The notes: a model not told the origin generated them from the sequence alone. Counted from the first letter of the stretch, positions 58,019-64,000 are shown. The stretch: DNA of 64,000 bases from Escherichia coli (GCF_001677475.2 NZ_CP015229.1); one strand, 5' to 3'. Numbers and translations: made by a program.

Positions 58019-59581
58019 TCAATTCGCTTCGTAGATTGCTTTATCCGGTGTATCCGATTGCACCTCTACTACATCGGCAGTGCTTACGCCACAAGCCCAG
58101 GCAAAAGCCGTCTCTGTTCCTTCAGGTAATGGAGTATCCCAGGGTAAAGTACGCCACGGACTCCCCTGCTCTTTTAATAAAGATGTAATGGCTTTCTTAA
58201 AAAGAATATGGGTAATCAGGTGCCGTTTATCCGTTGCTTTCCAGTACCAACGGGCCAGCAAAAAATGTCCGGCCAATTCGCGCCAGCTTCTGTAATGTTG
58301 CTGTACGCGTCTGGCTGCCAGCATCGAAAAATCGACCATTTCACGCTGGGTAATGTATCCCACTTGCGCCCCGCTATTACATAGCATGACAAAGCGCACC
58401 ATATCCCAGGCACAAAAATCTATGTCGCATATTTTACGTCGATTTTTTCTGACCATCTGTAGCTGCCACAAACGCTCTTTCGCTTCGCTACTTAATTTCG
58501 CGTTCTGAGCTAATTGCTGAGCGAACGCGCTATATTCAGCATCCGGCATTTCGCTATCGTTTTTGATCTGTTCTTCATAAACTGAACGATGCCCTGCTAC
58601 AAACAAAGCTAAGAGTTGCTCAAGTAACGAATCCCGATCAAAGACGCCCCACATGTCAGCAAGGGACTCAACTTCACTTTTGCAATCATTCTCTGCTTCC
58701 ACGGAATCATCATTAACGACTCGTCGCGCCCAGTGATTGTTACCCGCAATGGCATAAGGCGCGCCGACTGCCATTGCCCAACGTTCGGCAGCAGGAATTT
58801 TTTGAATTGAGGGATCTTTACAGGATGCTTTGAAAAGGCGATGTCCGGCGAACACCAGGCCATAACCAATCCACAAAACAGCCACCAAGGCGAGAATAAG
58901 TATTATCGCTACCAGATAAAGGGCATATTTGCCTATTGTCAGTAAGACATCCAGCCAGGAAGAGTCTGGCTCCGTAACTGTTTGCTCCACCGATGTCAAA
59001 GGGGACTTACTGACCCGCTCTGGCGCGGTCCTCGTCAACAGAGGGAAATCCCTATGTTGCTTGAATGAGCGTTTTTTAAGCAAATCTATTTTTTTCTGCA
59101 CCTCATCAGTAACCCGACCGTTTTTTTCAAACTCATGTAACGATGCAAAATCAATCGCCGCAATCTTCCATTTACCATCCCCTTCACGGATTAATTCCAT
59201 TGGAATATCAATATAAGATTGGTGACCAAAAAAAGCACCAATCTGCGCCTTGTCGCCTTCGACGAAGGTCGCTAAAGGATCGCTATAACTGGGGAAACGT
59301 CGTTTACACGTTTTGGGTGACTCTTGCCAGTATTTCAGTACAGGCTCCATTAAAGCAGGCGTAAATACTTGCTGCATTTCCACAAGGCGATCGTGCGAAT
59401 CTGTGCTGGTGACAAACTCAGGGCCACATAATGCGCGATAACTCTTTTTGACGACAGAGGAAATAGCTTCTTTGTCTTGTTGCAGCTGTGCGGCAATTTT
59501 CTGTTTTTCTGCTCTATCGCAGCCAGTTGATAAAAGAAATAACAAACAAAGAAGAGGCTTCCAGGGAAGAGTGCGTTCCAT
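58019..59581 (-). CDS. hypothetical membrane protein, 520 aa: N-terminal signal/lipobox-like segment, one internal TM helix, large C-terminal domain (possibly DUF1266-like)
   Basis: ORF 58019..59581; N-terminus MERTLPWKPLLCLLFLLSTGC; internal hydrophobic segment YALYLVAIILILALVAVLWIGYGLVFAG; domain assignment is from memory and tentative. Confidence 0.7.
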   Translation of the reverse strand: MERTLPWKPLLCLLFLLSTGCDRAEKQKIAAQLQQDKEAISSVVKKSYRALCGPEFVTSTDSHDRLVEMQQVFTPALMEPVLKYWQESPKTCKRRFPSYSDPLATFVEGDKAQIGAFFGHQSYIDIPMELIREGDGKWKIAAIDFASLHEFEKNGRVTDEVQKKIDLLKKRSFKQHRDFPLLTRTAPERVSKSPLTSVEQTVTEPDSSWLDVLLTIGKYALYLVAIILILALVAVLWIGYGLVFAGHRLFKASCKDPSIQKIPAAERWAMAVGAPYAIAGNNHWARRVVNDDSVEAENDCKSEVESLADMWGVFDRDSLLEQLLALFVAGHRSVYEEQIKNDSEMPDAEYSAFAQQLAQNAKLSSEAKERLWQLQMVRKNRRKICDIDFCAWDMVRFVMLCNSGAQVGYITQREMVDFSMLAARRVQQHYRSWRELAGHFLLARWYWKATDKRHLITHILFKKAITSLLKEQGSPWRTLPWDTPLPEGTETAFAWACGVSTADVVEVQSDTPDKAIYEAN

Positions 59582-59664
59582 CTATTTATTCCATTAAAAA
59601 CACGGTAATAACAATCCATTAAAAAACAGCAGTCAGGGTAAAGATGACTTAATTAACAGGATAG

Positions 59665-59701
59665 GTTTTAAATGATAAGTCCCTTGTGCCAGACAAGGGA
59701 C
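59665..59701 (-). terminator. hairpin downstream of speB
   Basis: Perfect 8-bp stem GTCCCTTG/CAAGGGAC followed on the minus strand by a T-rich tract. Confidence 0.5.
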
Positions 59702-59730
59702 TGTGCAAAAAATTCGACCAGGCAGGTTAC

Positions 59731-60651
59731 TTACTCGCCCTTTTTCGCCGCCTGAATATACAGCATCTCCAGCGCCAGCGTTGCCGCTGCCAGAGCAGTG
59801 ATTTCCGACTGATCGTATGCCGGAGCCACTTCCACTACGTCCATCCCAACGATGTTGAGATCTTTCAGGCCGCGTACCAGTTTAATGGCGCGATCGGAGG
59901 TCAGGCCGCCAATTACCGGCGTACCGGTGCCTGGTGCAAAAGCAGGATCCAGGCAGTCGATATCAAAGGTCAGGTAAACCGGCATATCACCCACAATCTG
60001 TTTCACCTGGGCGATAACATCATCCACGCTGCGATCGTTCACCTGGCAGGCGTCCAGCACGGTAAAGCCGTTGTCTTTATCAAACTCGGTACGAATACCA
60101 ATCTGCACGGAATGATTCGGGTCAATCAGACCTTCTTTTGGCGCGGTATAGAACATCGTGCCGTGGTCAAATTCACAACCGTTCGCATAGGTATCGGTGT
60201 GAGCGTCAAAGTGTACCAGCGCCATTTTGCCGAAATGTTTTGCATGGGCGCGCAGCAGCGGCAGCGTAACAAAGTGGTCACCACCGAAGGAGAGCATACG
60301 CTTACCGGCAGCCAGCAGTTTCTCTGCGTGCGCCTGCAATTTCTCGCTCATCTCACGGGCATCGCCGAAGGCATATACCAGATCGCCGCAGTCCACGACG
60401 TTCAGGCGCTCGCGCATGTCGAAATTCCACGGGAAACGGTTGTGTTCCCAGGCCAGGTTAGTTGATACCTGACGGATAGCCGCCGGACCGTGACGACCAC
60501 CCGCACGACCAGAAGTGGCCATATCGAACGGTACGCCGGTAATCACCCAGTCAGCATCGCTGTCATACGGCTGGAAGTTCATCGGCAGGCGTAAAAAACC
60601 AAAGGCGTTGGAAACCAGTGAGTTATCGTATTGATGCCCTAAGGTGCTCAT
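59731..60651 (-). CDS. speB: agmatinase (agmatine ureohydrolase), 306 aa
   Basis: ORF 59731..60651; arginase-fold metal-binding motifs ([14 protein letters not shown]). Confidence 0.95.
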
Positions 60652-60678
60652 GGATGGACTCCTATTACAAAGTCGATA

Positions 60679-60721
60679 TAAAAAAACCCTTCCGCGTCGT
60701 TAGGCCCGACGAGGAAGGGTT
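60679..60721 (-). terminator. strong intrinsic terminator after the lipoprotein gene, about 30 nt upstream of the speB start codon
   Basis: Long stem AACCCTTCC...GGAAGGGTT with an inner CGTCG/CGACG pairing, followed on the minus strand by a 7-nt T-run. Confidence 0.7.
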
Positions 60722-60786
60722 GGATTTGCGAAACACAAGTTTGTGCTAATTATCGCCTTAAATGGGCGAGGCATCAAGCGAGGTTG

Positions 60787-61518
60787 CTATTTCCGACACG
60801 GTGGCGGCGCATAGCCATTGTTATCTGCTGGAAAAGCTTGTCCAGAGCACGGTGGCAGCGCGTTTTGCGCCGGGCCTTGTAATTCAAAGGCGGCAAAGCC
60901 GATTACCCCGGTATTACGCACATCGCCTTGCGCCGAATTGGCGGCGTAGGAATCAGCAACGTTGGCGAACTGAAAAGCCGCTTCGGTATGTTTATCTTTG
61001 CGGAATCCTTTAATCGCTAACGAATCTCCGGCATTCACAATATAACCGTTGTTATTCAGCGAACCTTGCTTGCCGTTCAGCACATCCAGGCCATCAACCG
61101 TAGCAACGATCTCGTAATTGGTGTTCCGGCTGTAGTTACGGACATATAATTGATAATTCATCCCCACTCTGGCATGAACAATATATCGCGGTTCATTATT
61201 TGATGAATCATAAACTCGCGTAATAGGTAGAGAATTAAAATTCGCATCACGAATAGCATATTCCAGTTCGTTAATACGAATGCTATAAACACGGTCGTAG
61301 CCGGAAGGAATATTTGTCGAATAATTAATAACGATCATCTCTGCCGGATCGCGCCAGGCGCGTTCAGCAGATACGCCCTGAACCGTTGAGTGCACATCTC
61401 CACCCCAGGCAGTGCCGACATTGCCCGATGCACTGCTATTATACTGCGCATTACTTGAGCAACCAGCCAACAACACGACTAATGCCACCAACGCGCTACG
61501 TACTTTCCATTTTTTCAT
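60787..61518 (-). CDS. hypothetical lipoprotein, 243 aa
   Basis: ORF 60787..61518; signal peptide with classic lipobox (VVLLAG-C, Cys20); N/S/Y-rich mature part; no domain recognised. Confidence 0.7.
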   Translation of the reverse strand: MKKWKVRSALVALVVLLAGCSSNAQYNSSASGNVGTAWGGDVHSTVQGVSAERAWRDPAEMIVINYSTNIPSGYDRVYSIRINELEYAIRDANFNSLPITRVYDSSNNEPRYIVHARVGMNYQLYVRNYSRNTNYEIVATVDGLDVLNGKQGSLNNNGYIVNAGDSLAIKGFRKDKHTEAAFQFANVADSYAANSAQGDVRNTGVIGFAAFELQGPAQNALPPCSGQAFPADNNGYAPPPCRK

Positions 61519-61600
61519 TACCGTTCCCTCTATTTAATTAATACAGCGATTGTAGGGGGGTTATTTAATAATAAAAGCAGCCAAATTATTTTTAAGAATA

Positions 61601-61644
61601 TATAAAAAGAAAGCGGGCCGATTTACGTAAATAAATCGACCCGC
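61601..61644 (-). terminator. speA intrinsic terminator
   Basis: GCGGGCCGATTTA ... TAAATCGACCCGC, 13-bp stem with one mismatch, followed on the minus strand by TTTCTTTTTATA. Confidence 0.7.
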
Positions 61645-61661
61645 CAGCGGAATAATCTTAA

Positions 61662-63638
61662 TTATTCATCTTCAAGATAGGTATATCCGTACAACCCTGC
61701 CTCGAACTCTTCAAGGAACTGTTGTTGCAATTCAGCATCAAGATCGGTTTTCTTCACTTGATCACGGAACTGAGTTAACAGCGTTTTCGGATCGAGCTGT
61801 ACATATTGCAGCATGTCCGCCACGGTATCGCCTTCGTCAGACAGTTCTACTTCTACGCTACCGTCAGGGAAGACGAACACGTCAACCGCTTCGGTATCAC
61901 CGAACAGGTTGTGCATATTGCCGAGGATCTCCTGATATGCGCCGACCATAAAGAAACCGAGCATCGGCGGATTCTCCGGATCGTACTCCGGCATTGGCAT
62001 TGTCGTGGCAATACCGTCACCATCAATATAGTGGTCGATAGCACCGTCAGAGTCACAGGTAATATCCAGCAACACAGCGCGGCGTTCCGGCACTTGATCC
62101 AGCCCTTCCAGCGGCAGAACCGGGAACAACTGGTCGATCCCCCATGCGTCCGGCATCGACTGGAACAGCGAGAAGTTGACGTACATTTTGTCCGCCATAC
62201 GTTCCTGCAGCTCGTCGATAATCGGGCGATGCGCACGGTTTTGCGGATCCAGTTGCTTCTGCACTTCATGGCACATGCTCAGATAGAGTTGTTCTGCCCA
62301 TGCACGTTCTTGCAGATTGTAAGTGCCCGAAGAGTATCCGATATGAATATCGTGCAGATCCATCTGGCTGTCATGCAGCCACTCACGCAGAGAACGGCGA
62401 GTCCCCGGTTCGTGCATTTCCTGCCAGGTTTCCCACATGCTTTGCAGGGCGCGCGGTGCGTCTTCTGCAGGTGCGGTCGGCACCGTGTATTCGTTACGTT
62501 CCACGCCGATGATATTTGACACCAGCACGGTGTGATGCGCAGTCACCGCACGACCCGACTCGGTGATTACCGTCGGATGCGGCAGACCATTTTCTTCACA
62601 CGCATCACCAATCGCCCAGATGATGTTGTTAGCGTATTCATTGAGGCCGTAGTTCACCGAACAGTCGGACTGCGAACGGGTGCCTTCATAATCCACGCCC
62701 AGGCCGCCGCCGACGTCGAAGCACTGAATATTGACGCCCAGCTTGTGCAGTTCCACATAGAAACGCGCGGATTCACGAACGCCTGTCGCGATATCGCGAA
62801 TATTCGCCATCTGCGAACCGAGGTGGAAGTGCAGCAGTTGCAGACTGTCGAGACGCCCGGCTTCACGCAGCGTTTCAACCAGTTGCAGTACCTGAGTCGC
62901 AGCCAGGCCGAACTTCGATTTTTCCCCGCCGGAGGACTGCCATTTACCGGAGCCCTGCGAAGCCAGACGTGCACGCACGCCCAGACGAGGAACGACATTC
63001 AGACGTTCTGCTTCATCCAGCACAATGGCAATTTCTGACATCTTCTCAATGACCAGATAGACCTTGTGGCCCATCTTCTCGCCAATTAATGCCAGGCGGA
63101 TATATTCGCGGTCCTTATAACCGTTGCAAACGATGACGCTACGGGTCATGCCAGCATGTGCCAGCACCGCCATCAACTCCGCTTTGGAACCGGCTTCCAG
63201 GCCCAGCGGTTCGCCCGAATGAATCAGGGACTCAATCACGCGGCGGTGCTGGTTAACTTTGATCGGATAAACGAGGAAGTAATCGCCGTTATAGCCGTAG
63301 GATTCCCGCGCACGTTTGAACGCGGCGTTAATAGAACGCAAACGGTGCTGCAGGATCTGTGGGAAACAGAACAGTGCAGGCAGACGCTGGCCCTGTGCTT
63401 CACGAGTTTTCACTAACTGCGCGAGATCGACGCGAGCTTCCGGGACGTCCGGGTCCGGGCACACGCTAATGTGGCCCAGCTCGTTAACGTCATAGTAGTT
63501 ATTGCCCCACCAGGCAATATTGTAAGTACGCAGCATCTTGCTGGCTTCCTGGGAGCTCATTGCAACCTCCTGCATGGAGCGTAGTACACCGTGTTCGCCC
63601 GCTGACGAAGGCAAACCCATAGACATGTCGTCAGACAT
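61662..63638 (-). CDS. speA: biosynthetic arginine decarboxylase, 658 aa
   Basis: ORF 61662..63650; start at [12 protein letters not shown] (ATG 63638..63636) gives the K-12 length. Confidence 0.95.
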
Positions 63639-63646
63639 AGCGAACC

Positions 63647-63778
63647 TCAAATTATTTTATTAAGTGTAAAACAGTTAACGACTATCGCAGCCTGGAACTG
63701 CGATAACAACCCATAAGCACATGGATTTTCCAGCAGTGAATGCTGACGCTCCAACTGCGCAACCGGTTTCTTTTTCAT
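63647..63778 (-). CDS. yqgB: small protein YqgB, 43 aa ([43 protein letters not shown])
   Basis: Minus-strand ATG 63778..63776 to TGA 63649..63647, ending 8 nt before the speA start; matches my recollection of K-12 YqgB; too short for the ORF track. Confidence 0.65.
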
Positions 63779-63913
63779 AACATTATTAAGCACATAACCG
63801 AACGTAAGTGTGACAGTTCGGCGAAACCACGAGAAAACTCTTGTTTTTACAAGAGCGCCCTTGTTCAGTCCTCAGTAACTGTAACCAGCTCTTGAATCCT
63901 GAGAAGCGCCGAG

Positions 63914-64000
63914 ATGGGTATAACATCGGCAGGTATGCAAAGCAGAGATGCAGAGTGCGGGGAACGAATCTTCACCAGAACGGTGAGACAGGTTAAGCAG
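63914..64000 (+). CDS. yqgC: possible 5' part of yqgC (runs off the right edge)
   Basis: ATG at 63914 opens a frame ([20 protein letters not shown]...) still open at the window end; position matches K-12 yqgC but the sequence was not verified. Confidence 0.25.

Follow-up and report, generated by a model that had tools for sequence, protein, structure and literature searches.

Agmatinase is encoded by speB, a gene that reportedly has a promoter of its own and is also co-transcribed with speA, according to work by Szumanski and Boyle from 1990. Agmatine reportedly induces transcription of speB, and cAMP reportedly represses it (Satishchandran and Boyle 1984; Szumanski and Boyle 1992). In K-12, speA and speB are adjacent, as a first-pass annotation of the DNA analysed here had stated, and are separated by a 137-nt spacer that lacks any lipoprotein gene. 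This spacer harbors the same hairpin, T-run, ribosome-binding site and downstream spacer as the locus described below, together with homologous −35 and −10 hexamers 17 nt apart. In O157:H7, the same position is occupied by the same gene as in the present locus (97% amino acid and 95% DNA identity; product WP_000758914.1, annotated as 'lipoprotein') and is followed by an identical downstream spacer, the allele studied here being somewhat divergent (dS about 0.2).

Terminators located in 5' leaders are a described class in which the region from promoter to start codon contains a stem-loop with a U-tract and a mapped RNA 3' end, as in the ispU 5' UTR and others (Adams et al. 2021, PMC7815308). 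The speB leader resembles them; it differs in that neither a leader peptide nor an alternative structure, a riboswitch aptamer or a known regulator was found. In the Term-seq data of that study, a K-12 3' end maps at 3083827(-), position −30 from speB, which is the sixth U of the T-run. The table that lists it keeps only those 3' ends with a start site 21–200 nt upstream, and the text of the paper gives no description of the speB leader hairpin. The same work counts yqgB-speA among the K-12 upstream ORFs that have a Rho-dependent 3' end close by.

The window, a stretch of 64,000 nt of Escherichia coli DNA (NZ_CP015229.1), carries the lipoprotein-bearing arrangement. The ORF map places the end of speA at 61662 and the start of speB at 60651, the spacer thus being exactly 60652..61661; all features of this interval lie on the minus strand, and it contains a single substantial ORF (Table 1). 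SpeA has 99% amino acid identity to its K-12 and O157 counterparts, and SpeB 100% to those of E. coli and E. albertii. The reading favored here, with a probability of roughly 0.8, is that an accessory lipoprotein cassette occupies a variable slot and that the ancestral speB control unit downstream of it is intact.

Table 1. Coordinates of the features in and around the speA–speB interval of the window.
Feature	Position	Strand	Basis
speA (biosynthetic arginine decarboxylase), 658 aa	61662..63638	-	ORF; annotated speA in matching E. coli records
Cassette terminator ending speA, 15-bp stem 61645..61612 and T-rich tail	61601..61645	-	Folding, scan
Candidate promoter of the lipoprotein gene, TTAAAA-16-TATTAT	61568..61595	-	Consensus scan only, 9/12 matches
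Lipoprotein gene, 243 aa	60787..61518	-	ORF; stop codon 60789..60787; ribosome-binding site GAGGGA 61530..61525
Predicted speB promoter, −35 TTGATG 60777..60772, 17-nt spacer, −10 GATAAT 60754..60749	60749..60777	-	Scan and conservation
speB leader hairpin/intrinsic terminator, stem-loop 60719..60687 (CCCTTCCTCGTCGGGCCTAACGACGCGGAAGGG), T7 60686..60680	60680..60721	-	Folding, K-12 identity
Spacer with ribosome-binding site AGGAG (60663..60659)	60652..60679	-	Sequence
speB (agmatinase), 306 aa	59731..60651	-	ORF

Some features of the surroundings deserve mention. The small ORF yqgB (43 aa, 63647..63778, minus strand) lies directly upstream of speA. On the other side, between speB and loiP, a 520-aa DUF1266-domain protein is encoded (58019..59581, minus strand). 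Its N-terminus resembles a lipobox (LLSTGC, with Asp at +2), and a hydrophobic segment lies further inside; at ≥80% coverage, only 210 of the 5426 complete E. coli genomes have this protein, and K-12 and O157 lack it. The speA–lipoprotein–speB segment (59731..63638) has 95–97% DNA identity to the best E. coli genomes, with dS 0.17–0.23 against O157, and the adjoining 2.7 kb are 98.8% identical to one E. coli strain, which suggests that the allele at this locus is either divergent or recombinant.

The lipoprotein gene is framed by two hairpins, both of which show the stable, G+C-rich stem-loop followed by a U-tract that characterizes intrinsic terminators. The upstream one, with its T-rich tail, folds at −23.4 kcal/mol (z = −4.5 against shuffled sequences), and the downstream one, a 33-nt stem-loop followed by T7, at −24.4 kcal/mol (z = −5.0), in agreement with the first-pass annotation, which had placed a strong terminator on either side of the gene. 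The downstream hairpin was overlooked by the consensus scanner because of one internal U/C mismatch. Its T-run ends 28 nt before the ATG of speB, AGGAG included, so the distance of about 30 nt and the room for little beyond the ribosome-binding site had also been judged correctly. An RNA 3' end within the U-tract is on record for the downstream hairpin only, from K-12 data, and the sequence there is identical. The upstream terminator, which follows speA, is absent from K-12 and is found in the lipoprotein-bearing loci of six genera, where its stem differs from genus to genus with compensated changes. As K-12 lacks the cassette, the downstream hairpin is therefore the only terminator after speA in that strain; it would end the speA transcript there and the lipoprotein transcript in the present arrangement.

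It was proposed at first reading that insertion of the lipoprotein gene might have rewired speB, by bringing a terminator to speB and removing its promoter. Apart from the absence of the lipoprotein gene from K-12, the extra terminator that now follows speA, the lack of room for a promoter between hairpin and ATG, and the distinct promoter variant of the gene-bearing haplotypes all speak for such a change. The spacer comparison with K-12 that was suggested as a check confirms the absence of the gene and, at the same time, contradicts the proposal, as the window, O157 and K-12 are identical in a three-way alignment from 'CAAATCCAACCC' through the hairpin, the T-run and the ribosome-binding site into speB. 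With hairpin, T-run, spacer and ribosome-binding site 100% identical in a strain without the gene, a terminator 30 nt before speB is therefore the normal K-12 layout and not a product of the lipoprotein gene. The same arrangement recurs in all 84 enterobacterial sequences surveyed, whether the gene is present or not, a conserved promoter lies between gene and hairpin, and K-12 has its RNA 3' end at −30, in this same T-run. Rewiring by insertion is thus regarded as quite improbable.

That conserved promoter falls within the very interval in which no obvious speB promoter had been noticed. It is a σ70-like site detected by consensus scan, TTGATG and GATAAT at a distance of 17 nt, inside the 16–18 nt range expected for −35 and −10 elements, and it begins 10 nt past the lipoprotein stop codon and ends 29 nt ahead of the hairpin; the homologous K-12 site reads TTGAAT-17-GATAAT. 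Its conservation was surveyed in the speB loci of 80 Enterobacteriaceae species representatives, taking the 170 nt upstream of each (84 sequences). A promoter of the type TTGNNN-16/17-GATAAT is present in 82 of the 84, regardless of the lipoprotein gene, and the hairpin is kept in every one of them, with or without it. The distance from −10 to hairpin is 27–34 nt, and 29–30 nt in 65 sequences, while the segment from hairpin to ATG measures 31–52 nt across species and contains indels. Therefore, the survey reveals a conserved promoter 5' of the hairpin and none 3' of it. From consensus and conservation, the site is predicted to be active as the speB promoter, with a start near 60742, and the fact that the K-12 3' end was retained in the table of Adams et al. 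(2021, PMC7815308) indirectly supports a start site upstream of it.

Other positions for the promoter were considered and set aside. The segment between hairpin and ATG is too short and too variable (31–52 nt, rich in indels, without conserved hexamers), and none is conserved there. A second promoter-like site, at 60844..60817 in the 3' end of the lipoprotein gene, came up in the scan; a promoter inside the gene is not needed, because the conserved one sits just past its stop codon. With only 28 nt from T-run to ATG and no promoter conserved in them, speB transcripts must therefore read through the hairpin. Hence, of the two routes that had been offered for speB expression, read-through of the terminator stands and a promoter within the lipoprotein gene is superfluous. 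A strong terminator in this position, between promoter and gene, predicts that most transcripts are short.

Departures from the common layout are few. In an Enterobacter MAG, the hairpin follows the speA stop codon directly, without a promoter, and in Citrobacter gillenii about 140 extra nt with no recognizable promoter lie between lipoprotein gene and hairpin. In Salmonella, a multi-gene island separates the lipoprotein gene from speB; the hairpin is retained and the usual promoter sequence is not recognizable. Edwardsiella (Hafniaceae) has both promoter and hairpin, and Providencia has neither.

The model proposed for this locus joins these elements in the following way. The speB control unit would consist of a σ70 promoter, about 22 nt, the 33-nt hairpin with its U-tract, about 30 nt with the ribosome-binding site, and speB itself. 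In the genome analysed here, speB would be transcribed from its own promoter, just 3' of the lipoprotein stop codon, and every speB transcript would read through the leader hairpin, as it would in K-12 and in all Enterobacteriaceae. The hairpin would double as terminator of the upstream gene, which is the lipoprotein gene here and speA in K-12. The cassette, made up of a dedicated speA terminator, a probable promoter and the lipoprotein gene, would sit in the slot that extends from the speA stop codon to the −35 element of speB, leaving the speB unit untouched.

Nine of the 80 species representatives have the lipoprotein gene between speA and speB: three Escherichia, three Citrobacter, one Enterobacter, Kluyvera georgiana and Klebsiella spallanzanii. 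Most of the remaining representatives have speA and speB adjacent, and in further Klebsiella loci and in Salmonella the lipoprotein gene is found directly 3' of speA. Every gene-bearing locus has a homologous 'TTAAGA..TATTCC' segment and the terminator after the stop codon of speA, and the cassette is therefore defined as terminator, promoter and gene, located at one fixed site. It occupies this same site, with a patchy distribution, in Escherichia, Salmonella, Klebsiella, Citrobacter, Kluyvera and Enterobacter, and the orthologous lipoproteins of the six genera are 63–76% identical. As for the slot itself, its length from the speA stop codon to the speB −35 element varies in the surveyed loci (L010–L086) between about 17 nt and over 150 nt, often with REP-like palindromes such as GCCGGATAAGGCG...CATCCGGCA, and it seems to act generally as a hotspot of small insertions.

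Within E. coli, the gene-bearing arrangement is carried by 3542 of 5426 complete genomes and the K-12-type junction by 1867. About 60 nt including the promoter are only ~60% identical between the K-12 and O157 haplotypes, with both flanks identical, because the speB promoter differs in a systematic way between gene-bearing and gene-free haplotypes. In the −35 element, position six is G in all eight distinct lipoprotein-linked sequences and in none of the 52 without the gene, and the mean Hamming distance is 10.5 between the two classes against 6.8 within them. Therefore, a simple, recent deletion from the O157 state does not account for the K-12 state, and there are two old haplotypes, with and without the cassette. 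Their scattered occurrence within genera points either to repeated loss or to recombinational exchange through the very conserved speA and speB flanks. An insertion, as the first-pass annotation called it, is not established as the origin of the present state. As part of the favored reading, and as probable as the whole of it, presence or absence of the cassette is considered an old polymorphism at a fixed site in several genera and not a strain-specific insertion.

It could be argued, on the other hand, that the cassette was acquired recently, as a mobile or phage-derived element restricted to this lineage, as its patchiness within genera and its absence from a third of E. coli genomes might suggest. 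The marks of a mobile element or genomic island, namely flanking repeats, mobility genes and variable sites, are however missing from what is a single gene: no direct or inverted repeats flank the cassette, it includes no mobility gene, and neither PHROG nor PADLOC gives a match for it. The site, the flanking terminator and the orthologous protein are common to six genera, and the gene is under strong purifying selection, all of which makes a recent mobile origin very hard to sustain.

Genomes with the gene carry a distinct speB promoter variant, and therefore quantitative differences in speB expression are possible; some cassette-linked difference in speB control may exist. In such genomes, read-through from speA to speB would have to cross two terminators and about 1 kb, versus one terminator otherwise, and co-transcription of speA and speB is expected to be weaker when the cassette is present.

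The leader hairpin itself is the element that stands out. Among 79 distinct sequences, 25 of its 33 columns do not vary and the mean pairwise identity reaches 0.95, whereas in speB of the same taxa third codon positions have an identity of 0.64 and only 1.7% of four-fold degenerate sites are invariant. The loop GGGYYTAA, the inner stem CGTCG/CGACG and the internal U/C mismatch are essentially fixed, and variation is confined to the outer stem, in the form of wobble or compensated changes; the lowest pair of the stem, for instance, is A-U instead of U-A in 15 of 42 sequences. The speA terminator of the same loci serves as an internal control, and it drifts like an ordinary terminator. By this comparison, the hairpin is conserved far beyond what termination needs.

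It is possible that the hairpin is just a leaky terminator that serves two purposes and is under unusual constraint. A more ambitious proposal, tentative and held to be rather less probable than its negation, is that it is an ultraconserved enterobacterial cis-element acting as a conditional terminator, a regulated attenuator whose loop (GGGCCUAA), inner stem and mismatch would be read by a protein factor or small molecule, and/or that it forms the 3' module of a conserved, ~63-nt RNA predicted to originate at the speB promoter. The fixation of loop, inner stem and mismatch beside a drifting speA terminator argues for it, as do the fixed distance from promoter to hairpin, the in vivo 3' end in K-12 and the survival of the hairpin in Salmonella after loss of speA adjacency and of the usual promoter; the induction by agmatine and repression by cAMP that speB reportedly undergoes would also fit. 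As in attenuators, a terminator is located in the 5' leader, conditional on the promoter prediction. No alternative structure, aptamer or known RNA family of the kind that defines attenuators and riboswitches was found, however: RNAalifold applied to 42 leaders gives only the terminator helix and one helix over the ribosome-binding site and start codon, with no conserved antiterminator pairing, and an Rfam scan of 59400..64000 has no match at E ≤ 1. Likewise, the succession of promoter, ~22 nt, hairpin and U7-8 corresponds to the promoter and U-tailed terminator of Hfq-type small RNAs, but the conserved single-stranded seed of such RNAs is lacking, as the ~20 nt at the 5' end are the least conserved part of the predicted RNA. 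There is also no known ligand or regulator, and the conservation could instead reflect a DNA operator.

Two further pairings were looked at and set aside. A 13-nt segment of the speA 3' coding region is complementary to the 5' arm of the hairpin, but this match is not kept beyond Escherichia, with 7–9 of 13 pairs including wobble in most genera, and it was attributed to chance. The loop segment GGCCUAA (60701..60707) faces UUAGGUC in codons 4–6 of speB (60636..60642), forming 7 bp with one G-U in K-12 and 5 bp with a mismatch here; the Leu4 codon TTA of speB is nearly invariant across genera. This complementarity could be due to chance or to a translational contact, and it was not counted, as there is no covariation to test.

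For annotation, these results mean that the speA–speB spacer is best treated as two parts, a variable slot and, after it, a conserved speB control unit; the slot may contain REP-like sequences, the lipoprotein cassette or, in Salmonella, a whole island. The oddity, a sequence-invariant terminator hairpin between promoter and gene, is general to speB and not specific to a strain. For the transcriptional control of agmatinase, long unexplained, the speB leader hairpin offers a concrete and testable candidate and, if the proposal of a conditional terminator is true, it could be the missing mechanism of the reported agmatine induction; the lipoprotein cassette would then matter only through its distinct promoter and leader haplotype. 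Thousands of E. coli genomes have the lipoprotein gene annotated, and the layout before speB is the normal one in K-12. The finding is an ordinary one in itself: the gene is an already annotated, uncharacterized accessory gene, and a terminator before speB is the conserved norm. What interest is left resides in the ultraconserved leader hairpin and, to a lesser degree, in the lipoprotein family.

The lipoprotein was correctly recognized at first reading as a 243-aa product with a LAGC lipobox encoded between speA and speB. It starts with MKKWKVRSALVALVVLLAGC, followed by SS, and displays the charged N-region, hydrophobic core and lipobox [LVI][ASTVI][GAS]C of signal peptidase II substrates, here MKKWKVRSALVALVVLLAG directly followed by Cys. 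The signal peptide comprises residues 1–19, Cys20 is invariant in 39 homologues, and the protein is predicted to be lipid-anchored at this residue; Ser at +2, with no Asp in this position, suggests Lol-dependent sorting to the outer membrane. In these traits, from the basic N-terminus to the invariant Cys, it resembles classical Sec/SPase II lipoproteins sorted by Lol, and it differs from them in a mature domain without a Pfam, NCBIfam or solved-structure match. With dN/dS of 0.035–0.045 against three other Escherichia alleles, the gene is real and under strong purifying selection.

In RefSeq annotation of E. coli, the product is termed 'lipoprotein' or 'hypothetical protein' (WP_000758914.1, for example). 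Pfam gives no match even at E ≤ 10, the only NCBIfam match is one of 16 bits on the signal peptide against a cut-off of 375 bits, the PDB contains no sequence relative, and a literature search by locus tags retrieved nothing on the protein. The AlphaFold (AF2) model, a confident one (pLDDT 83, pTM 0.78), is all-beta after the signal peptide, with a predicted fold of two beta-sandwich-like domains. Its AFDB matches are uncharacterized 'outer membrane lipoproteins' of Pseudomonas, Acinetobacter, Kingella, Ralstonia, Comamonas, Providencia and others, and a profile search recovers 4217 cluster representatives (50% identity) at E ≤ 0.001, 3264 of them at E ≤ 1e-10. It is, then, a large, uncharacterized, proteobacterial family (about 4200 clusters at 50% identity) that has no Pfam model, solved structure or known function, and a candidate for a new domain-of-unknown-function entry. 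The best guess, by inference only, is a Lol-sorted, lipid-anchored beta-sandwich protein with a binding or structural role in the cell envelope.

The gene neighborhoods give no functional link between the lipoprotein and polyamines. Outside Enterobacteriaceae the neighborhood is not conserved, the homologues being located in the his operon in Comamonadaceae and elsewhere next to unrelated genes or standing alone. In Acidovorax and a related contig (L088, 5001..5831; L091, 4001..4813), the homologue lies between hisD and hisC and is followed by a small unannotated ORF of 115–129 aa, a second case in which a member of this family is lodged between conserved biosynthetic genes.
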